Shown in pieces: positions 15,110 through 58,079 of a DNA stretch of 64,000 bases. The position numbers and the translations under genes were made by a program. How positions within the stretch are numbered: position 1 is the first letter of the stretch; each line of letters starts with the position of its first letter. The notes below the pieces were generated by a model. That model was not told the origin of the DNA. It did no database searches and was given only the letters and a program-made list of their open reading frames with translations. Origin of the DNA: Mycoplasma sp. CAG:956 (lineage in GTDB: Bacteria > Bacillota_I > Bacilli_A > RF39 > UBA660); contig HF993102.1 of the NCBI GenBank assembly GCA_000433475.1, forward strand, positions 23,806-87,805. Reading direction: 5' to 3'.

Positions 15110-18100
15110 TTATTCAGCACTAGTTATACTTAAAGTACAATCTTCGCCATTAATGTCATAGTGATTTTCACTTTCTTCTAAAGTTAGATTGTTTGCTAAA
15201 GTTTCTGACTTAATAAAATCAGCATATTTAGTAAAGCATTCAACAATCTTATCTGAACCACTATAAGTAACATTGATATGGTCTTGAATATCTAAATCCA
15301 TTTCTTTACGCATGTTTTGTAGTTTAGAAACGATTTCTCTTGCCATACCTTCAAGTAATAATTCATCAGTTAAAGTTGTATCTAAAATAACAAAATCACG
15401 ACCATTCATGGCAACATCAAAGCCTTCTTTTGCCTCAATACGAACATCTATCATATTACTAGTGATAATTAAATCTTTATCTTGGAAAGTAACATTTAAT
15501 TCTTCTTTATTATTTAACTTTAGTTTATCTTCTTCACTTAAATTTAATAATAATTCTTGGTAAGCTTTAATATCTTTGCCAAACATAGAACCAGCTACTC
15601 TAAAGTTAGGTTTAATAGTTAAGTTCATATATTTACTTAAATCTTTAGTAAATTCTAGATTTTTAACATTTAATTCTTCGGTAATAAGATTAGTTAAATC
15701 GCCTAGTAAGTCTTCTAATTTACCATCAATAATAACAGTTGCAAGAGGAATTCTTACTTTGATTTTGCTATCTTCTCTGGCATTACGTCCTAGAGATATT
15801 AAGTCTCTTACTTTATCCATTTTTTCTTCAATAGTAGAGTTAATATATTCTTCGTTAACTACTGGATAATTACTTAAATGAACTGATTCTTCATTTGTTA
15901 AATTACGGTACATTTCCTCAGAAATATAAGGACAAATTGGAGCAATTAGTTTAGATAAGCCTACTAAGACATCATAAGTAGTTTTGTAAACAGCCTTTTT
16001 ACTAGTTGTAAGATGACTATCCCAGAAACGATTACGATTACGACGAATATACCAGTTAGATAGGTCTTCACAAACAAAGTCTGTTAAAAAGTGAACTACT
16101 TTATTTAAATCATATTCATCAAATGAAGCTCTAACATTTTTAACTAAAGTATTATATTTAGAAAGTAACCATTTATCAATTAAGTCTAGGTCTTCGTATT
16201 TAACATTACATTCATCAGTATCTATTTTATCAGCATTAGCATACATAACAAAGAAATTGTAAGTATTTTTAAGAGGGTTAAAAAACTTAGAATGAACTTC
16301 TTTTAAACCATCAAATGAGAACTTAAGTGGTGTCCATACTGGTGAAACATAAGGTAAGTAGAATCTTACTTCATCAGCACCATATTCTTCGATAGTCTTG
16401 AAAGGCTCAACGATATTGCCACGGGATTTACTCATCTTTTTACCTTCACCGTCTAATAGTAAGTCATTTACTAAAACATTACGGTAAGGAGCATGCCCCA
16501 TTACAAAGGTAGAAATAACCATTAAAGTGTAGAACCAACCTCTAGTTTGGTCAATTCCTTCACAAATAAAGTCAGCTGGGAATTGTGTTTCAAATAATTC
16601 TTTATTTTCAAATGGATAATGATATTGAGCAAATGGCATAGAACCAGAATCAAACCAACAGTCTAAAACATCAGGAATACGTTCCATAGCACCACCACAC
16701 TCTGGACAAGTTAGATGGACTGTATCAATATATGGTTTATGTAAATCAAAGTCTTCTGGTAATTTTTCGATGCTACGATTTCTTAATTCTTCGATACTTC
16801 CTAACATTTCATTGTGACCACAACTACATTTGAAGAATGGAATTGGTGAACCCCAGAAACGGCTACGGGAAATATTCCAGTCTTTAGCATTACTTAACCA
16901 GTTAGCAAATCTTTTTTCGCCAACATAATCAGGATACCAGTTAACTTCTTTATTAGCTTCTACTAATTTTTCTTTAAAAGCTGATACCTTAATATAATAA
17001 CTAGGCATAGTATAATAAATTAATGGAGTATGGCATCTCCAGCAATGTGGATAGTCATGGGTTATTTTTTGCTTTCTAAATAATTTATTATTTTCTTTTA
17101 AGTAAGCAATAACATCATCAGTACAATCGAAAACAAATTTACCAGCCCAAGGTCCTTCTGTATAACAGCCGTCTTTGCCAACTGGATTAACAATTGGCAC
17201 CCCGTAACGGTTACAAACATTGGCATCATCAACTCCGAAAGCACCAGCCATATGAACAATACCAGTACCATCAGAAGCCGTAACGTATTCATCACACATA
17301 ACAAAGAATGCTTTACCTTCCACTTTTAACTCTGGAATTAATTGCTCATATTCAGTAAATTCTAAGGATTTTCCTTTGAATTTTTCTAAAATTTCAACTT
17401 TTTTATCTTGAAAAACACTAGTAATCAAGCTTTCAGCTACAATATACTTAAGTCCATCTACTAAGACTTTTACATATTCCATATTTGGATTAACACAAAG
17501 ACCTACATTTGCAAGTAAAGTCCAAGGTGTAGTTGTCCAAGCTAGAAAATAAGTATCACTATTTTTTATCTTAAAAGGTACATATAAAGTAGTTGCTGTC
17601 TCAGATACATATTCTTGAGCAACTTCATGGGTAGCAAGCCCAGTACCGCAGTGAGGGCAATAAGGCACTACTCTAGTTCCTTCATAAAAGTATCCCTCAT
17701 CAAAGAATTTCTTTAAAATCCACCATTCTGTTTCAATATACTCATTTTTATAAGTTAAATATGGATGGTCAACATCAATAAATTGACCCATTTTACTAGT
17801 TAGTCTAGTGAAAGCTGCTTCGTTTTCAGCAACACTATTACGGCATTCTTGATTAAATTTATCAACACCAAGTTCTAGAATTTCTTTCTTTGAAGAGATA
17901 CCTAATTTCTTCTCTACATGGTTTTCAATAGGTAGGCCATGAGTATCCCAACCTACTTTTCTTAAAACTTTTTTACCATTCATGGCATGATATTTGCAAA
18001 TTGAGTCTTTTAGGTTTTTAGCAACCATATGGTGAAGTCCTGGAAAACCATTAGCAAATGCTGGTCCATCATAGAAAACAAAAGTATCGCAATCTTTATG

Positions 18101-18301
18101 AACTTCATTTTGACGATTTAAAATATTAACGATGCCACCCCAACTTTGCAAAATGTCATTTTCTACAACACTAGTTGGTCTTTTGTCTAAATTTTTAAAA
18201 TTTTTCATACATTTTCCTCCCAAATATTTGATAAAAAAAGAAAAAATCCCATAACATAAGGGCGAATTACCGCGGTACCACCTTATTTTATGAGATATCA
18301 T
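15110..18301 (-). CDS. ileS: Isoleucine--tRNA ligase (long, about 1030 aa form)
   Basis: Class I aaRS with HMGH-like and KMSKS ('KMSKSRGN') motifs and zinc knuckles. The true start is probably the ATG at 18208 (MKNFKNLDK...) behind GGAGGAAAATGT; the upstream part of the track ORF is the T-box leader. Confidence 0.95.
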   Translation of the reverse strand: MISHKIRWYRGNSPLCYGIFSFFIKYLGGKCMKNFKNLDKRPTSVVENDILQSWGGIVNILNRQNEVHKDCDTFVFYDGPAFANGFPGLHHMVAKNLKDSICKYHAMNGKKVLRKVGWDTHGLPIENHVEKKLGISSKKEILELGVDKFNQECRNSVAENEAAFTRLTSKMGQFIDVDHPYLTYKNEYIETEWWILKKFFDEGYFYEGTRVVPYCPHCGTGLATHEVAQEYVSETATTLYVPFKIKNSDTYFLAWTTTPWTLLANVGLCVNPNMEYVKVLVDGLKYIVAESLITSVFQDKKVEILEKFKGKSLEFTEYEQLIPELKVEGKAFFVMCDEYVTASDGTGIVHMAGAFGVDDANVCNRYGVPIVNPVGKDGCYTEGPWAGKFVFDCTDDVIAYLKENNKLFRKQKITHDYPHCWRCHTPLIYYTMPSYYIKVSAFKEKLVEANKEVNWYPDYVGEKRFANWLSNAKDWNISRSRFWGSPIPFFKCSCGHNEMLGSIEELRNRSIEKLPEDFDLHKPYIDTVHLTCPECGGAMERIPDVLDCWFDSGSMPFAQYHYPFENKELFETQFPADFICEGIDQTRGWFYTLMVISTFVMGHAPYRNVLVNDLLLDGEGKKMSKSRGNIVEPFKTIEEYGADEVRFYLPYVSPVWTPLKFSFDGLKEVHSKFFNPLKNTYNFFVMYANADKIDTDECNVKYEDLDLIDKWLLSKYNTLVKNVRASFDEYDLNKVVHFLTDFVCEDLSNWYIRRNRNRFWDSHLTTSKKAVYKTTYDVLVGLSKLIAPICPYISEEMYRNLTNEESVHLSNYPVVNEEYINSTIEEKMDKVRDLISLGRNAREDSKIKVRIPLATVIIDGKLEDLLGDLTNLITEELNVKNLEFTKDLSKYMNLTIKPNFRVAGSMFGKDIKAYQELLLNLSEEDKLKLNNKEELNVTFQDKDLIITSNMIDVRIEAKEGFDVAMNGRDFVILDTTLTDELLLEGMAREIVSKLQNMRKEMDLDIQDHINVTYSGSDKIVECFTKYADFIKSETLANNLTLEESENHYDINGEDCTLSITSAE

Positions 18302-18445
18302 ACACTCTTACTTTTAACGCAAGTTAAACGGCTATAAGCACATCGAAAAGTGATTTGAAATAAACTAATTTACTGCCTTTCACCAAATGACAGCTCTCTT
18401 TGAAATATCATTTATTTCCGTCTTTTTTCATCTGATTTACTGTTT
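18215..18445 (-). promoter_or_regulatory. T-box riboswitch leader of ileS
   Basis: Conserved T-box 'AAGGUGGUACCGCGG' (plus 18270-18284). Antiterminator AAGG/CCUU + 7-nt UGGUACC bulge + GCG/CGC. U-tract follows. Candidate AUC-A specifier upstream. Confidence 0.7.
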
Positions 18446-51877: not shown

Positions 51878-52678
51878 TTAATTCCAATTAATAAATAAAT
51901 TATCCATACTATAAACTGAGTAATCAGAAAAATAATTAATTTTACTAGCTTTAGTATCATTGCTAAAATTTTTTAAAAACTTGTCTTGATCGCTAGTGCT
52001 TATGTTTAGGGTATCACTGCCATTAACCCCACTTTTTTTAATAATATCCGTAACATCGACAACTAATACATTATCAATATGCATTATAGTATTACTAATA
52101 TTGTTACTGTAGTTAACTCGAAATTGACATTGACCATTATAATCACTTTTTTCTAAATAGCCTTTTTTTTTCCAGTTCAAATTATAATCATTGTCATAAT
52201 TAACAACAACAAAATTTATAGATTCTCCAGCAATAAGACTATTGTTTTCTGAAAATAAGCCAATATTTCCGGTGCCATTACCAACATTACCATTAGTGAA
52301 CACATAATAAGAGACGTAATAATATCTATTGGCATAACAGTTAAATTTATTTGAAGTTACTGTTGCAGTGCTATTTGGAAATTTTAAAGAACGTAATCCA
52401 CCTTTTTTTGTTTCCTTATTATCTGGATTACTGTAATAGGCATTGCTTAAATTCCAAGAATTATTTTTTTCAAAATCGCTATTACCAATTTCATTATATA
52501 AAGTAATATATTTATCATTTATTCGGGTATTTAAAGCAGTATTTATACTCTTATTATATTTGTTAAGGGTATTACGATAATAATTGTAATTACTAATAAT
52601 AACGGTTACTAGTGTGGCAAATAAAAGTAAGAAGGAATAAATAAGTGTGGTTGCAATAAAACCTTTGTTATTTTTCAT
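51878..52678 (-). CDS. Asn/Tyr-rich secreted or membrane-anchored protein with N-terminal hydrophobic anchor (266 aa)
   Basis: N-terminal 'MKNNKGFIATTLIYSFLLLFATLVTVII', then an N/Y/S-rich domain. Own promoter with TGgTATACT extended -10 at about 52700. Confidence 0.45.
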   Translation of the reverse strand: MKNNKGFIATTLIYSFLLLFATLVTVIISNYNYYRNTLNKYNKSINTALNTRINDKYITLYNEIGNSDFEKNNSWNLSNAYYSNPDNKETKKGGLRSLKFPNSTATVTSNKFNCYANRYYYVSYYVFTNGNVGNGTGNIGLFSENNSLIAGESINFVVVNYDNDYNLNWKKKGYLEKSDYNGQCQFRVNYSNNISNTIMHIDNVLVVDVTDIIKKSGVNGSDTLNISTSDQDKFLKNFSNDTKASKINYFSDYSVYSMDNLFINWN

Positions 52679-52882
52679 AATAATTCACCTCTATTTTAGA
52701 GTATACCATAAAGATATTAATTTTTCACTTATTTATCCTACTTGCATATAGTTTTTATTTATCTTTTTAGAAAATTAAGAACGTAACATAAACATCTTAT
52801 GAATGTATAAAAATCTTTATTCATATATATCCTTTCTAAAGAATTCGTAAGGTAATACGAAGAAACTCTATAATTTTTTTTA

Positions 52883-53050
52883 TCATTTGCATACCCTTTT
52901 AGAAAATAACATTCTTATTGCGGTGCCTAGACTTCTTCCTATATCAGAAATAGTACTTAGGCTTCTTGCAAGAGCATTAAAGAATGTGGCATTTAAAACA
53001 CTTACCGCTCCGCCTTTTATTTCTTTTAATTCATTGACATTTAATAACAT
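52883..53050 (-). CDS. Double-glycine-leader bacteriocin-like precursor peptide B (55 aa from the ATG at 53050)
   Basis: Leader 'MLLNVNELKEIKGG'. Mature 'AVSVLNATFFNALARSLSTISDIGRSLGTAIRMLFSKRVCK'. RBS AGGAGA. The track ORF extends to a TTG at 53068. Confidence 0.6.
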   Translation of the reverse strand: MLLNVNELKEIKGGAVSVLNATFFNALARSLSTISDIGRSLGTAIRMLFSKRVCK

Positions 53051-53058
53051 ATGATCTC

Positions 53059-53196
53059 CTAATTGCAAGCTAATGGACGCATAATACCATCTAAAATTCC
53101 GATTAAAAATGCTCCTAAGCCAACTAAACTAGCAATAAGTCCTACGGACATACCGCCACCCTTTATTTCTTTTAATTCTTCAAGTTTTAATATCAT
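53059..53196 (-). CDS. Double-glycine-leader bacteriocin-like precursor peptide A (45 aa), absent from the ORF track
   Basis: My own translation: MILKLEELKEIKGG|GMSVGLIASLVGLGAFLIGILDGIMRPLACN. RBS AAAGGA 8 nt upstream. Lies 17 nt after the ABC transporter stop. Confidence 0.6.
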   Translation of the reverse strand: MILKLEELKEIKGGGMSVGLIASLVGLGAFLIGILDGIMRPLACN

Positions 53197-53215
53197 AATT
53201 TTTTCCTTTCTTACA

Positions 53216-55231
53216 TCAGAATAACTTTATTTGCTTTTTAAACAGATCTTGTACATCTTTATGTGATATATAAATTAAAGTACAGTTTTTATAAGCACCT
53301 ATTATATTTTTTATTATCTTTTTTTCAGTTGCTATATCAACTTGGCTCAAAGCTTCATCAAAAATCATGATAGGTTTTAAATCATAAAGACTTCTAGCCA
53401 AAATAATTCTTTCAATTTCGCCACCAGATAAATTATTTCCAGATTCTTGTAATCTTGTTTCTAGGTGATTTGGTAATTTAAAAATCAATCCTTCCAGTTC
53501 ACATATTTTTAAAATTTTATTTAATTTATCTAAATTTAATGTTTTACCAAGTACTATATTATCTTTAATGGTTTTGTTAAATAAAATGGCATCTTGACTA
53601 ACATAACCTATATTACTTCTTAAACTATTTAAGTTAATATTTTCAATATTAATATTATTTATAGTAATACTTCCTTTTTGCAAATTATAATAGCGATATA
53701 GCAATTTACATAAAGTGGATTTGCCAGTGCCACTTGGACCCAATAATATTACTTTTTCGCCCTTTTTAATTGATTGATTTAGATTTTTAATAACATTATT
53801 GCCATTGTTATAATTAAAACTTACATTGCAAAAAGTAATATCGCCTTTTGAAAATGGTAATTTTGATTCTTTATCTTCTGTGGAAATATCACCAAATTCG
53901 CTAATACGATTATAACTTTGTTTTAAATAACGATACTTTGGCATAATATCTAGTAATTCTTCTAAGTTATAAATCAGATAGTTAGCTAAAGTAATAAAAG
54001 TAAATAGACCTATTAAGGCTATTTTATTTTGAAGATATAAAACAAAGCCATAACTTACTATACTGAAGTTTCCCAATTCCAAAAGAATACTTTCCATAGA
54101 TTGCCATTTATTTAGAGTATTGCCATAACTATTCTGATAGTCAAAATAATCTAAAGCTTCACTTTGAAAGTGACTATAAAAATAATTTTCTTGATTGATA
54201 TCCTTTATTGTTTTATAGCCATTTATTATTTCTATTAAAGAATCTTGATAAATATTATTTTTATCAAGTAGATAATTTATGTAACAATTCATTTTTTTAT
54301 TTTCAATCACCTTAAAAATCGTATAGCTTAAAATAATAAGTATAACAAATATGCTTAAGAGAAGATTTAAATTAATGATTAGAATAAAGCCTAATATAAA
54401 CTGACAGACAGTCATGGTAATTTTTAATAAAAATTCTAAAATTGCTTCTTTGATAATTTGTAAATCTTCAATATGTTTTAAAGTTCTTCCTGATGTTGCT
54501 TTCTCTAAATAAGGAAGCGGGAGATGTAAAAAATGTTTAATATAACTAAAAGTTAAAGCTTTATCTACGCTTTTGTTAAATTGCAAACTTTCTTTAGTAA
54601 AATAATATTTGCTTATAATTTTAAGAATAGTTAAAATTAGAAATATAACTATAATCTTTAGATAACTAGAAGAAATATTTAAAAACTGTAGATAGTAGCT
54701 AAGGATTATATTCAAAATATTTAAAGTAAGCCCTAATATGATAATACTTGCTACTGACTTCTTGTTTTGACATACTAGCTTTTTAGTTAAGCAAAATAGT
54801 GATGTTGATTTGTTTAATTTAATAATGGCATCACTAGGTATAGCATTTATAGCAATATTTGTCCAAAGACTTGCAAGTTCTGATAAAGACATTTTAATTA
54901 TTCCTTTACTAGGATCCATAATGGTACAAACATCATTTTTGGTTTTTAAAAGTAAAACGTAATGATAATATTTGTTTAAATTCAAATGTAAAATAATGGG
55001 ATTTGATACTTTTTTAAGATCGTCTATTGTTAACTTTAAGCCTTGAGCATCAAAACCGTAACGTCTTAAAGTAATGACGATATCATATGCTGTTACTCCT
55101 TCCTTATCTAAATTAGTATCAATACGAATTTTTTCTATTGAAACGTAACCATTATAATATTTTACTAGACTATAAATGACTGCTGGAGCACAATCATTTA
55201 TATCACTTTGCATAGTTACCAATTTGTGCAT
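53216..55231 (-). CDS. Bacteriocin/peptide-exporting ABC transporter with N-terminal C39 peptidase domain
   Basis: C39 'DCAPAVIYSLVKYYNG' (catalytic Cys) and 'HYVLL' (His). 6 TM. ABC 'GPSGTGKST', 'LSGGEIERI', 'IMIFDEALSQVD'. Confidence 0.9.
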   Translation of the reverse strand: MHKLVTMQSDINDCAPAVIYSLVKYYNGYVSIEKIRIDTNLDKEGVTAYDIVITLRRYGFDAQGLKLTIDDLKKVSNPIILHLNLNKYYHYVLLLKTKNDVCTIMDPSKGIIKMSLSELASLWTNIAINAIPSDAIIKLNKSTSLFCLTKKLVCQNKKSVASIIILGLTLNILNIILSYYLQFLNISSSYLKIIVIFLILTILKIISKYYFTKESLQFNKSVDKALTFSYIKHFLHLPLPYLEKATSGRTLKHIEDLQIIKEAILEFLLKITMTVCQFILGFILIINLNLLLSIFVILIILSYTIFKVIENKKMNCYINYLLDKNNIYQDSLIEIINGYKTIKDINQENYFYSHFQSEALDYFDYQNSYGNTLNKWQSMESILLELGNFSIVSYGFVLYLQNKIALIGLFTFITLANYLIYNLEELLDIMPKYRYLKQSYNRISEFGDISTEDKESKLPFSKGDITFCNVSFNYNNGNNVIKNLNQSIKKGEKVILLGPSGTGKSTLCKLLYRYYNLQKGSITINNINIENINLNSLRSNIGYVSQDAILFNKTIKDNIVLGKTLNLDKLNKILKICELEGLIFKLPNHLETRLQESGNNLSGGEIERIILARSLYDLKPIMIFDEALSQVDIATEKKIIKNIIGAYKNCTLIYISHKDVQDLFKKQIKLF

Positions 55232-55244
55232 CTAATTACACCTC

Positions 55245-55300
55245 CTAATTATATATATTGGTAACTGATGGCAAATTTCCTTTAAAAGTTTTAAAAAAAA
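55245..55300. repeat. Copy 2 of the duplicated element (22 nt identical to 23430..23451), overlapping the ABC-transporter promoter/RBS
   Basis: 'ctaattatatatattggtaact...tttcctt...aaaaaaaa'. On the minus strand it contains TTGCCA...TATAAT and the AGGAGGTG RBS of the transporter. Confidence 0.5.
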
Positions 55301-55301
55301 G

Positions 55302-56078
55302 TCATTTTTTTGACTTTTTTGACATTTTTTTCTTGATTTTATAATTTTTTTTATCTTTTTTCTTGGTTTCTTTATCTTTTGATTTTATCTTAGTAATAAG
55401 TTCTTGCTCTTTTTTACTATCTTTCCAAATATCTGGAAAGGCATTAAATAATCTGTTTTTAACAAATTTTAAATGAGAAATTTCATTTTTATATTTTCTT
55501 TCTAATAAAGTAGGAATCATACGTAATTTAGCACTTTTTAATTCTTCTGCAATAATTATACGATGACGTAGATTATAAGCAATTATGCAAGAGAAAATCA
55601 TATCTAATATAAAGATAACTAAAAATATAGTTCCTATAATAATGATAAATTTATCAGCCAAATGACTTCGTAATTGATATAACAAAGGATTTAAAATTTT
55701 TATAATAAAGCAGGTGCCAATTCCAAAAAGGATAGAATTTTTTAGACAAATACGACCATTGATATTATCTTTACGATAAGAATAATCCCACCAACGATTA
55801 TGAAATATTACTTCAAGAATGTAACTTGTATAGTATTCAACAGTGCTAGTTATTAAAGCTCCCATTAAGAAAAGAATGATTAAATCATTTTCATATTTAG
55901 TAAGAAGCCAAGTAATTAAAACAAAGCCTACTCCATAAATAGGACAAATCGGTCCAAATAAAAAACCACGGTTGACTAATTTTTTATAACTAATACTGCA
56001 TTTGATAACTTCTGCTGTATATCCAAGAAAGCTAGCAACAATAAAATATAAAAATACTTCTATTAATTTTAAATACAT
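55302..56078 (-). CDS. Polytopic membrane protein, DUF1113/'putative ABC-transporter type IV'-like, with Lys-rich C-terminal tail
   Basis: 'FLGYTAEV...GFLFGPICPIYGVGFVL' resembles the CmpB-like family signature. Low confidence. Confidence 0.4.
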   Translation of the reverse strand: MYLKLIEVFLYFIVASFLGYTAEVIKCSISYKKLVNRGFLFGPICPIYGVGFVLITWLLTKYENDLIILFLMGALITSTVEYYTSYILEVIFHNRWWDYSYRKDNINGRICLKNSILFGIGTCFIIKILNPLLYQLRSHLADKFIIIIGTIFLVIFILDMIFSCIIAYNLRHRIIIAEELKSAKLRMIPTLLERKYKNEISHLKFVKNRLFNAFPDIWKDSKKEQELITKIKSKDKETKKKDKKNYKIKKKMSKKSKK

Positions 56079-56096: not shown

Positions 56097-56552
56097 TTAT
56101 TCGCCATATTTTTTAACACTACAATGACTTGGATTAAATAAACATGTAAAACAGTCTTTATAGCCATTTTTACCACTAGTATTTGTTGATGTTTGATAAC
56201 CATCTATAACTAGATTAAAAATGCCATTAATAAGACCAGGAGCCATGAATATCAAAATAGCAGCAATAGAGCGCTTAGCAAATTGAATTAGATTTTTTTG
56301 CAAGCCATCTTTAGCATCAATTACCGCTTTTGCGATATCAATAGTGCCATAAACAATCAAAACAATAGGTATTATGATTTTAACTACAAATATAGCATAG
56401 CCAATGATTTGTAAAGCTAATTTTACACCATTTGCAGCACAGAAGTTTAAATCTGAAACATCATCTGCTAAAACAGTTCCTCCGAACATCATAAAAAGTG
56501 TAAAAATAGAAAAGAAAATATTAATAAACTTTTTTTTAGTTTTCTTTTTCAT
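56097..56552 (-). CDS. small membrane protein with signal peptide (151 aa)
   Basis: Signal peptide plus 2-3 TM. C-terminal Cys-rich 'CFTCLFNPSHCS'. Confidence 0.4.
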   Translation of the reverse strand: MKKKTKKKFINIFFSIFTLFMMFGGTVLADDVSDLNFCAANGVKLALQIIGYAIFVVKIIIPIVLIVYGTIDIAKAVIDAKDGLQKNLIQFAKRSIAAILIFMAPGLINGIFNLVIDGYQTSTNTSGKNGYKDCFTCLFNPSHCSVKKYGE

Positions 56553-56710
56553 AGCTAAGTTCCCTCTCTTCTAAGAATGATTATACCATATAAGTAAATT
56601 GAAGAAAAGAAAAAATAATTATCCATTTTTTGACTTTTTTTAGCATTTTTAAATTGACTTATCGCAAAATATTATTTACAATTTATATGAAGTTTAATTG
56701 ACAGAAAAAA

Positions 56711-57241: not shown

Positions 57242-57386
57242 TTATTTATTTTTTGATTCTATTTTTTTCTCTTTAAAATTTGAATCTTTTTCTTATTTAC
57301 ATATATCAGATTAAAAAATTAGTATTGAATTATAAAAAAAATAGAGCAACAAAAAAAGCCCTCTTATAAGGGCCTTAAACTCTATC

Positions 57387-57471
57387 TGGTGCGGGTAAAG
57401 GGACTTGAACCCCCATGGATCTCTCCGCTAGATCCTAAGTCTAGTGCGTCTACCAATTCCGCCATACCCGC
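57387..57471 (-). tRNA. tRNA-Leu (anticodon UAG), CCA encoded
   Basis: Hand-folded cloverleaf: 7-bp acceptor GCGGGTA/TACCCGC, anticodon loop CU-UAG-GA, long variable arm, T-loop TTCAAGT. Confidence 0.85.
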
Positions 57472-57484
57472 GATTATTTAAGAA

Positions 57485-57561
57485 TGGTGGACCCTGTAGG
57501 ACTCGAACCTACAACCCATCGGTTATGAGCCGATTGCTCTAACCGATTGAGCTAAGGGTCC
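57485..57561 (-). tRNA. tRNA-Met (or tRNA-Ile2/lysidine), anticodon CAU, CCA encoded
   Basis: Cloverleaf: acceptor GGACCCT/AGGGTCC, D-stem GCTC/GAGC, anticodon loop CU-CAU-AA, T-loop TTCGAGT. The G1-C72 pair means it is not an initiator. Confidence 0.8.
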
Positions 57562-57650: not shown

Positions 57651-58079
57651 CTACTTATTATTTTGCAACATATTTAATAAATCAATTTTAAACATGTCTT
57701 TTGAAGCATTTTCTTTAGATATCATAACACCTTTATATGTTGCAAGTTCTGATTGATGTCCTTCAAGTAAAATACTTGATGGTGTAATAGTATCCAACAT
57801 AACAATTTCTTCTTGTTCGTATACAACGTAATGTAATTTGACATCACCATGAATTTGAGCAAATTTTCTATCACTAGGTAATTTTAACTCATAAGTCTTA
57901 GTGTGTTTACTCTTATTTTGAGAAACTAATTCACCAACAAATTTACCATCCCTCAAATCAGGATAATATTCAAAATTTAATTTCTTATAAGCAAGCATGT
58001 TATATTTTTTTAATGCTCTTTCTAGTTTGTGATACTCATTTTCGTTTGTATAATCTAAAACAAAACCTTTCATAACCAA
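57651..58079 (-). CDS. hypothetical protein (142 aa), weak RelE/ParE-fold-like C-terminal half
   Basis: 'YELKLP...HGDVKLHYVVYEQEEIVMLDTITP' is reminiscent of ParE/RelE 'lyRiRvGdyRiiY.i.de...v.iLrIghR'. Tentative. Confidence 0.3.
   Translation of the reverse strand: MVMKGFVLDYTNENEYHKLERALKKYNMLAYKKLNFEYYPDLRDGKFVGELVSQNKSKHTKTYELKLPSDRKFAQIHGDVKLHYVVYEQEEIVMLDTITPSSILLEGHQSELATYKGVMISKENASKDMFKIDLLNMLQNNK

Follow-up and report, generated by a model that had tools for sequence, protein, structure and literature searches.

A candidate two-peptide, class IIb-like bacteriocin locus with its own processing exporter in the gut bacterium 'Mycoplasma sp. CAG:956'

An exporter gene followed by two genes for double-glycine-leader peptides

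A 64-kb stretch of DNA from 'Mycoplasma sp. CAG:956', a metagenome-assembled genome (MAG) of the human gut, was analysed (the whole stretch is called the window below). It carries, one after another on the minus strand, the gene for a peptidase-containing ABC transporter (PCAT; 53216-55231) and two small genes, pepA (53059-53196) and pepB (52883-53050), which code for peptides A and B with double-glycine leaders. On balance, the evidence leans towards these genes being a reduced representative of a new family of class IIb-like two-peptide bacteriocins, served by a dedicated processing exporter. This reading is favoured because of the architecture of the locus, the pairing of the leaders with a leader peptidase, the obligatory association of A with B, the GxxxG motifs, and the small membrane protein encoded after B in relatives. 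No paper mentioning CAG:956 was found in the literature.

An initial annotation, made from the letters and a list of open reading frames (ORFs), had described an unannotated two-peptide bacteriocin-like locus. When the minus strand of 52500-55500 was re-read, the coordinates it gave for the exporter and for both small ORFs proved exact, and the two leaders and mature sequences it quoted were correct. pepA was indeed missing from the ORF track, being listed only once the length limit was set below 60 aa, and pepB appeared there as a mechanical, TTG-initiated ORF of 61 aa (52883-53068); its true start is the ATG at 53050, which gives 55 aa. 'Unannotated' holds for that ORF track only, since GenBank contains both genes, named 'unknown' (CCY88748.1 for pepA and CCY88747.1 for pepB). 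The inventory of small ORFs was incomplete, as two further mini-ORFs lie 3' of pepB.

A six-frame scan of the window for the pattern [EDQN][LIVM]xx[LIVMA]xG[GAS], located near an N-terminal Met and followed by 15-90 residues, returned exactly two matches, pepA and pepB. The window uses genetic code 11: it contains 145 TGG Trp codons, TGA stops eight of the 46 long ORFs, and the coding density is 91%. Genetic code 4, suggested by some database versions of pepB that end in W, was rejected, the codon in the related locus L016 being truly TGG. Database variants of 'pepA' 74 aa in length are TGA read-throughs made by the gene caller.

Features of peptides A and B

The pepA gene starts 20 bases past the stop codon of the PCAT gene, at an ATG with the Shine-Dalgarno (SD) sequence GAAAGGA upstream, and codes for a precursor of 45 aa. 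Its leader, MILKLEELKEIKGG (53155-53196), precedes a mature peptide of 31 aa, GMSVGLIASLVGLGAFLIGILDGIMRPLACN, with a mass of 3070.67 Da, a net charge of 0 and a grand average of hydropathy (GRAVY) of +1.5. The pepB gene lies 8 nt downstream of the pepA stop codon on the same strand; its ATG is preceded by AGGAG-N6 and coincides with the start codon of every homologue. The leader of the 55-aa precursor is MLLNVNELKEIKGG (53009-53050), and mature B has 41 aa, AVSVLNATFFNALARSLSTISDIGRSLGTAIRMLFSKRVCK, with a mass of 4413.41 Da, a net charge of +5 and a hydrophobic moment of up to 0.65. The initial annotation took both peptides to be cationic and amphipathic, a description that suits B, which is strongly amphipathic, but not mature A, which is uncharged, hydrophobic and transmembrane (TM)-like. 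Both leaders are 14 aa long, with hydrophobic residues at -4, -7 and -12 and Glu at -8, in agreement with the double-glycine consensus.

AlphaFold2 modelling of pepA with an alignment of 48 sequences predicted a short leader helix, a continuous TM-like helix spanning residues 16-39 and a loose RPLACN tail (pLDDT 84). For pepB a single long helix was predicted (pLDDT 70 overall, 81-84 for residues 21-50). When the PDB was searched with profiles of both peptide families, the sole similarity was that of the leaders to the CtA leader bound to PCAT1; on this ground, a homologous relationship between the mature peptides and proteins of solved structure was rejected. A common origin of A and B was also rejected, since hhalign aligned the leader plus a few residues only.

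The exporter

The exporter, a protein of 671 aa, is deposited in GenBank as CCY88749.1, 'ABC-type bacteriocin transporter'. Its Pfam domains are Peptidase_C39 (4e-29), ABC_membrane and ABC_tran, all of which exceed the cutoff. When aligned with PCAT1, the catalytic residues Cys14 (in QSDINDC), His90 and Asp106 were seen to be intact, and the nucleotide-binding domain contains a Walker A motif (498-506), the signature LSGGE (601-605), a Walker B motif with its Glu (621-626) and an H-loop (654-658). The best PDB match was PCAT1 of Clostridium thermocellum (4RY2; E 6e-87), which covered residues 6-658 and was full length; pneumococcal ComA (8HF7; E 1e-80) was second. The full-length score for TIGR01193 was 296.9 (cutoff 523.85), and those for the NCBIfam models NHLM_micro_ABC1 and Mbov_0121 were also well under the cutoff. 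Since all three models remained sub-cutoff, the protein can be classed, from its sequence, as a divergent peptidase-containing ABC transporter.

Two peptide families within a five-gene module

A profile search with pepA relatives retrieved at least 48 usable sequences of the A family, down to about 40% identity. All 48 share a layout consisting of the leader, a Gly/Ala-rich hydrophobic helix and the segment FLIG-x-(L/I)-D-G-x-x-R-P-(L)-x-C; G33xxD36G37 is present in every one of them and RPxxC in 43. For the B family, 1.84 billion cluster representatives were searched with a profile, which yielded 116 clusters (50% identity) at E<=0.001. Nearly all of these proteins are 50-57 aa long and align end to end, with the consensus ...ATF(L/I)NA(I/L)xR...(D/E)(L/I)GRS(L/I/V)G(S/T)(A/S)IRR....C. 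The initial annotation had drawn attention to GxxxG motifs, and one (near-)invariant GxxxG was found per peptide: G33xxxG37 in A (G-I-L-D-G; 48/48 relatives) and G38xxxG42 in B (G-R-S-L-G), where GxxxG[STN] occurs in 57 of 58 relatives. A Cys is found among the last five residues of 47 of the 48 A and 56 of the 58 B relatives, and the leader is mostly 14-15 residues long across both families.

Gene contexts were gathered by exact-protein look-ups plus one metagenome scan with a subset of pepA sequences, and were read with custom hidden Markov models; they comprised 40 distinct A/B pairs. In all 40, A was directly followed by B. PCAT was found upstream in 28 of the 29 loci with at least 2.5 kb of upstream sequence, and the gap between PCAT and A was at least 250 nt, room for an accessory gene, in 24 of 34. 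In 24 of 38 loci a further gene, here called C, had its start within the final codons of pepB, and rpsU was located no more than 1.5 kb downstream in 16 of 30. The module usually runs from PCAT through the accessory protein to A, B and C. The window carries a reduced form of this widespread five-gene module, not a stand-alone locus.

The accessory protein is 109-160 aa long (about 140) and has one N-terminal TM segment. It had no match in Pfam or the PDB, and a relationship to HlyD/ComB was rejected since both searches were empty. Gene C codes for 50-58 aa with a basic N-terminus and one TM helix, followed by (F/Y)xxGxY(V/L)GTxIR.....C. hhalign aligned C with the whole of mature B over 40 columns (91% probability, E 1.1e-6), which identifies C as a leaderless, membrane-anchored paralogue of B. 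The gene overlaps the pepB stop codon and has the position and size classically seen for an immunity gene; C is the obvious candidate for the immunity protein, and might work by mimicry of B. A, B and C share a conserved Cys at the C-terminus. The named database records retrieved for A, B, the accessory protein and C read 'hypothetical' or 'unknown', one evident misnaming excepted.

The carriers are AT-rich, uncultured gut Bacilli, those with names including 'Clostridium sp. CAG:710', Candidatus Ventrenecus stercoripullorum and 'Bacilli bacterium' MAGs. The GC content of the locus is 22-30%, and the longest contigs are 1.1-1.2 Mb.

These features suggest the following course of events. pepA and pepB would be translated with their 14-residue double-glycine leaders, the leader helix would dock in the C39 domain of PCAT, and Cys14, His90 and Asp106 would cleave after the Gly-Gly, ATP hydrolysis then expelling the mature peptides. 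Mature A, an uncharged TM-type helix, and mature B, an amphipathic helix with a charge of +5, would act jointly, in presumed synergy, on a target membrane. The two probably pack via their single invariant GxxxG motifs, and a disulfide between the conserved C-terminal cysteines may lock A to B. The conservation of the C-terminal Cys in all three families makes an intermolecular disulfide of this kind plausible.

Relationship to database families and to pheromones

Neither peptide of the window reached the cutoff of any Pfam or NCBIfam model. The models for lactococcin G and enterocin 1071 (NF038034, NF038035 and PF11632) gave no match at E<=0.1 for either of them, and Bacteriocin_IIc (PF10439) did not match either. 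Among the relatives of A, sub-threshold matches were obtained to TIGR03949 (43 of 48; best E 4e-8), NF038034 (35 of 48) and PF10439 (36 of 48), and PF10439 weakly matched 11 of the 58 relatives of B. Such weak matches concern generic models of double-glycine-leader bacteriocins or pheromones, including ComC, BlpC, EntF and VP1. By sequence, the peptides belong to no named family, and it is by its organisation that the locus presents itself as a new, reduced class IIb-like member. The class IIb interpretation put forward in the initial annotation therefore stands for the architecture of the locus and fails for membership in any named class IIb family; its statement that no characterised bacteriocin matches the core sequences held. 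For comparison, a large mining study of gut class II bacteriocins reports 4,186 unique double-glycine precursors (PMC12648112).

The initial annotation also allowed for a pheromone pair. A and/or B would then be secreted signals of the ComC/BlpC/plantaricin A type, sensed by a histidine kinase encoded elsewhere in the genome, which we regard as quite improbable. The export route, a PCAT acting on a double-glycine leader, is identical, and some relatives weakly match the pheromone models named above, but these matches fall on the leader. Mature A and B, with 31 and 41 aa, are longer than the known double-glycine pheromones, which have roughly 17-27 aa; A forms a TM-type helix; and the mature sequences show strong conservation from genus to genus, unlike pherotypes, which tend to diversify. 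As the initial annotation had noted, no cognate kinase or regulator lies near the locus of the window. No kinase with a LytTR-type regulator was found within about 10 kb in close relatives, and across all loci with called genes no HisKA/HATPase_c kinase paired with such a regulator flanks the module. The only kinase and regulator genes seen in any locus, those for a hybrid kinase and a regulator in the distant locus L021, lie beyond obg and were judged to be unrelated.

Purifying selection and natural disruption of pepA

Intact syntenic copies of the locus were found in four species-level alleles: the window itself, L001/L002/L028, L014/L015 and L016-18. The four share the order membrane protein of ~150 aa, CmpB, PCAT, pepA, pepB, pilin-like gene, rpsU, yqeY, yqfC and yqfD. 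In codon alignments of the four relatives, dN/dS (the ratio of nonsynonymous to synonymous substitution rates) was 0.08-0.29 for pepA and 0.08-0.12 for pepB, with synonymous sites near saturation. Low ratios at such synonymous divergence show that pepA and pepB are genuine, constrained protein-coding genes. PCAT is 63% identical across the four, with a dN/dS of about 0.25, so the peptides, at 67-82% identity, are better conserved than their exporter. The exact pepA protein occurs on more than 600 contigs of public collections, and one pepB variant on at least 1000.

Comparison with L001, in which the flanks are 95-100% identical and the block about 74%, had the appearance of a divergence hot spot between near-identical flanks. 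L028 led to the rejection of this idea: its 10-kb flanks are just 84-90% identical, the block being somewhat more diverged than its housekeeping neighbours. The high identity of the L001 flanks is due to the slow-evolving genes that they hold (tRNAs, rpsU and a gene for a 142-aa protein).

Several pepA variants in databases end after Gly37. In L087 (1-1028) and L088, homology to the window stops exactly there, and the foreign DNA that follows encodes an HTH_36 replication-initiation protein (phrog_4707, E 1.4e-18). L089 holds a further truncated variant of this kind, and the product of the foreign DNA in these contigs is replication-initiation/DnaD-like. These contigs are 1 kb or shorter, with one junction visible in each. 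The arrangement suggests that, in some gut strains, a mobile element has integrated at the 3' end of the pepA gene. Since pepA is truncated in nature, the locus is not essential, as expected for an antagonism trait.

A separate observation was made in P0005, a metagenome contig of 1.3 kb, in which residues 1-41 of pepA are fused in frame to the DIGRSLGTAIRMLFSKRVCK tail of pepB. This fusion may reflect a genuine deletion or may have arisen during assembly.

The reduced form of the module in the window clade

In the window clade the gap between PCAT and pepA is about 20 nt, which leaves no accessory gene, and C is absent as well. Apart from L067, the absence of both is specific to this clade. 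The clade has a reduced form, consisting of PCAT, A, B and two mini-ORFs, from which both the accessory gene and C, the likely gene for immunity, have been lost.

The mini-ORFs are all that is found 3' of pepB, where C sits elsewhere. The first would code for 18 aa (MQMIKKIIEFLRITLRIL; 52836-52892, minus strand), and its ATG overlaps the pepB stop codon, at the position where C starts in other lineages. Its equivalents in L001 and L016 have 16 aa, and L014 has none; the ORF is possibly a remnant of the N-terminus of C. The second, a conserved ORF of 21 aa (MNKDFYTFIRCLCYVLNFLKR; 52759-52824, minus strand), has its own SD sequence, AGAAAGGA, and is present in all four alleles; its core, FYTFIRCLCYV, has kept its residues through five nucleotide changes, all of them synonymous. 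It contains two Cys and no leader, and may be either a remnant of gene C, as its TFIR motif would indicate, or a new small protein.

Directly upstream of PCAT lies a gene for a multi-pass membrane protein of the CmpB family (PF06541; 55302-56078, minus strand; Pfam E 1.5e-48). Among the lineages examined, a CmpB homologue was located upstream of PCAT only in those lacking C, namely the window clade, L022, L027 and L067, and none of the 24 C-positive loci gave a CmpB match. This hints that CmpB could substitute for C, although the number of independent events is small, and any link between CmpB and immunity is speculation. The literature on bacterial PF06541/CmpB yielded nothing useful.

The loss of the accessory gene and of C raises the alternative that the system of the window clade is a decaying relic with no working product, an explanation that we consider highly improbable. 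It would agree with the largely clade-specific joint absence of the two genes, with the position of C being occupied by mini-ORFs alone, and with the circulation of truncated pepA alleles. However, each of the four species-level alleles has kept PCAT, pepA and pepB intact, the ribosome-binding sites and intergenic region are invariant, and saturated synonymous sites combined with dN/dS values of 0.08-0.3 do not fit neutral decay.

Bacteriocin or component of the producer cell

Several findings weigh against a bacteriocin. Mature A has no net charge, and in the anoxic gut the formation of extracellular disulfides is doubtful. pepA of the window matched TIGR03949 with only 15.7 bits (cutoff 21.5; E 0.0094; residues 2-34), and pepB matched no Pfam or NCBIfam model. 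Self-immunity is unexplained in the window clade, with neither C nor the accessory protein present. Most class II bacteriocins are patchy in distribution and often plasmid-borne; a tblastn search of 72,556 PLSDB plasmids found no relative, so that plasmid carriage was rejected, and the module holds a fixed chromosomal position across deep lineages. Its linkage to rpsU-yqeY persists even where S21 and YqeY are just 44-53% identical to those of the window; there, pepA is 45-65% and pepB 39-47% identical, the peptides thus being as conserved as the two housekeeping proteins.

The same observations could be accommodated if the module served the physiology of its producer, A and B (with an anchored C where there is one) forming a small Cys-linked complex in the membrane or at the surface, which might have a function in the envelope, in sporulation or in cell-cell contact. 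We consider this unlikely, while granting it real weight. It would account for the synteny beside rpsU-yqeY, or beside sporulation genes, kept across very divergent small-genome Bacilli, for mature peptides conserved like S21 and YqeY, for the conserved C-terminal Cys common to A, B and C, and for a protein C that resembles B yet stays anchored. Retention of the module in genomes whose longest contigs reach just 1.1-1.2 Mb, the empty plasmid search, the lack of charge on A and the absence of an immunity candidate from the window point in the same direction. Against it, strains in which a mobile element has cut pepA short show the locus to be dispensable, whole clades have lost the accessory protein and C, and the only sequence similarities detected are those to precursors of bacteriocins or pheromones. 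We know of no precedent for a complex of this kind.

A broader version, which we find doubtful and hold only tentatively, sees PCAT, accessory protein, A, B and C as a vertically inherited core system of uncultured gut Bacilli with small genomes, in which molecular mimicry would underlie self-protection or assembly. C would capture A via the shared GxxxG and C-terminal Cys, giving a Cys-linked, three-component membrane complex for kin discrimination or for envelope or sporulation physiology, and not a classical diffusible bacteriocin; in window-type lineages CmpB would replace C. The class IIb-like bacteriocin reading set out at the beginning remains the one preferred here.

Flanking genes and other features of the window

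Upstream of CmpB, a secreted or membrane protein of 151 aa is encoded at 56097-56552 (minus strand), the first gene of a probable transcription unit. It matched no Pfam or NCBIfam family. A conserved extended -10 promoter is present upstream of it (TG at 56587-56588, TATAAT at 56580-56585). An AU-rich hairpin of 10 bp followed by a U-run (55295-55320, minus strand) straddles the CmpB stop codon. The spacer between CmpB and PCAT (55232-55320) is almost invariant in the four alleles, with a mean column identity of 88% vs about 73% for the block, and contains TATAAT (55248-55253) and the SD sequence AGGAGG (55241-55246) ahead of the PCAT start; judged by these elements, it may act as a terminator or a promoter. 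The search for a terminator 3' of pepB found no significant structure (z = -0.04).

Beyond the mini-ORFs lies a gene for a pilin-like protein of 266 aa (51878-52678, minus strand), with the N-terminus MKNNKG-FIATTLIYSF... and a C-terminal domain that is hypervariable. A conserved extended -10 promoter of its own, GTGAAA-17-TGgTATACT (52700-52728), precedes the gene. The N-terminus (...KG-FIAT(T/S)LIYSF...) has no Glu at +5 and is the sole one of its type in the window, and the match to ComGE reached only E 0.035. A pilin-like gene follows pepB in three separate lineages; besides that of the window, copies lie at L026:6521-7273, L027:6353-7189 and L028:10398-12011, the L028 version having 537 aa with a glycine-rich ALK_LTK_GRD domain.

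Further away, a 142-aa protein of no identified family (57651-58079, minus strand) showed 100% amino acid identity in three other species-level relatives, in which GlyRS is about 97% and other neighbours 71-98% identical; compared with L001, its gene is also 100% identical at the nucleotide level. The genes for tRNA-Met(CAT) and tRNA-Leu(TAG) (57387-57561, minus strand) are followed by the region's only strong intrinsic terminator (57355-57376). Between tRNA-Leu and a divergent gene for 176 aa, the relatives carry an extra MBL-fold gene with a Pfam match to the anti-Pycsar protein Apyc1 (L001:1168-1932, L016:352-1116 and L028:5029-5793), which is absent from the window (57264-57390). Elsewhere in the window, a T-box leader (102 bits; 18255-18440, minus strand) lies upstream of an ORF of ~1060 aa (15110-18301), presumably an aminoacyl-tRNA synthetase.

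Significance and comparison with known systems

The carriers are abundant gut bacteria, and very little is known of their interactions with neighbours. If the peptides are a bacteriocin, they would be a candidate weapon in competition and a source of new narrow-spectrum peptides. The paralogy of B and C, the shared C-terminal Cys and the fixed rpsU neighbourhood lead to hypotheses on how two-peptide bacteriocins assemble and how producers protect themselves. The A, B, accessory and C families have no Pfam or NCBIfam model, and defining them would improve the annotation of many gut genomes.

The locus was compared with the class IIb systems lactococcin G/enterocin 1071, plantaricin EF and JK, lactacin F, brochocin C and ABP-118. 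Like these, it combines two different adjacent peptides, double-glycine leaders, a dedicated C39-ABC exporter and a GxxxG in each peptide; the mature peptides are helical, with 30-40 residues, and in most relatives a small membrane protein follows right after the second peptide. Unlike them, it has mature regions with no detectable homology to theirs and passes no family model; A is uncharged, and a conserved Cys stands at the C-terminal end of each peptide. The protein that may confer immunity is paralogous to B, and the accessory protein, of about 140 aa, has no HlyD/ComB signature. The distribution is chromosomal, syntenic and lineage-wide, and the copy in the window lacks the immunity and accessory genes.

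The model for lactobin A/cerein 7B (TIGR03949) is the best one for pepA and its relatives, and spans the leader and the Gly/Ala-rich hydrophobic N-terminal core. However, the pepA match ends before the LDGxxRPLxC segment that defines the family, and pepB gives no match.

The streptococcal systems ComAB/ComC and BlpAB/BlpC use the same type of exporter (ComA, 8HF7) and of leader, but their loci, unlike that of the window, carry a kinase/regulator pair and a ComB-type accessory protein, and their peptides are shorter than A and B and variable between pherotypes. CibAB-CibC of Streptococcus pneumoniae likewise combines a two-peptide bacteriocin with double-glycine leaders and, encoded after it, a very small membrane protein for immunity; competence controls the system, ComAB, encoded elsewhere, serves as its exporter, and CibC is not known to be a paralogue of its toxin. 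To our knowledge, CibAB has no detectable sequence similarity to the peptides of the window.

The closest solved homologue of the exporter is that of the PCAT1-CtA system of Clostridium thermocellum (4RY2, 6V9Z, 7T54-57). The CtA cargo is a single polypeptide of ~90 aa, whereas here there are two short peptides. PCAT1 and the locus of the window are alike in operating with no accessory protein, and the CtA leader, ELTDEELMEMTGG, resembles both leaders of the window.

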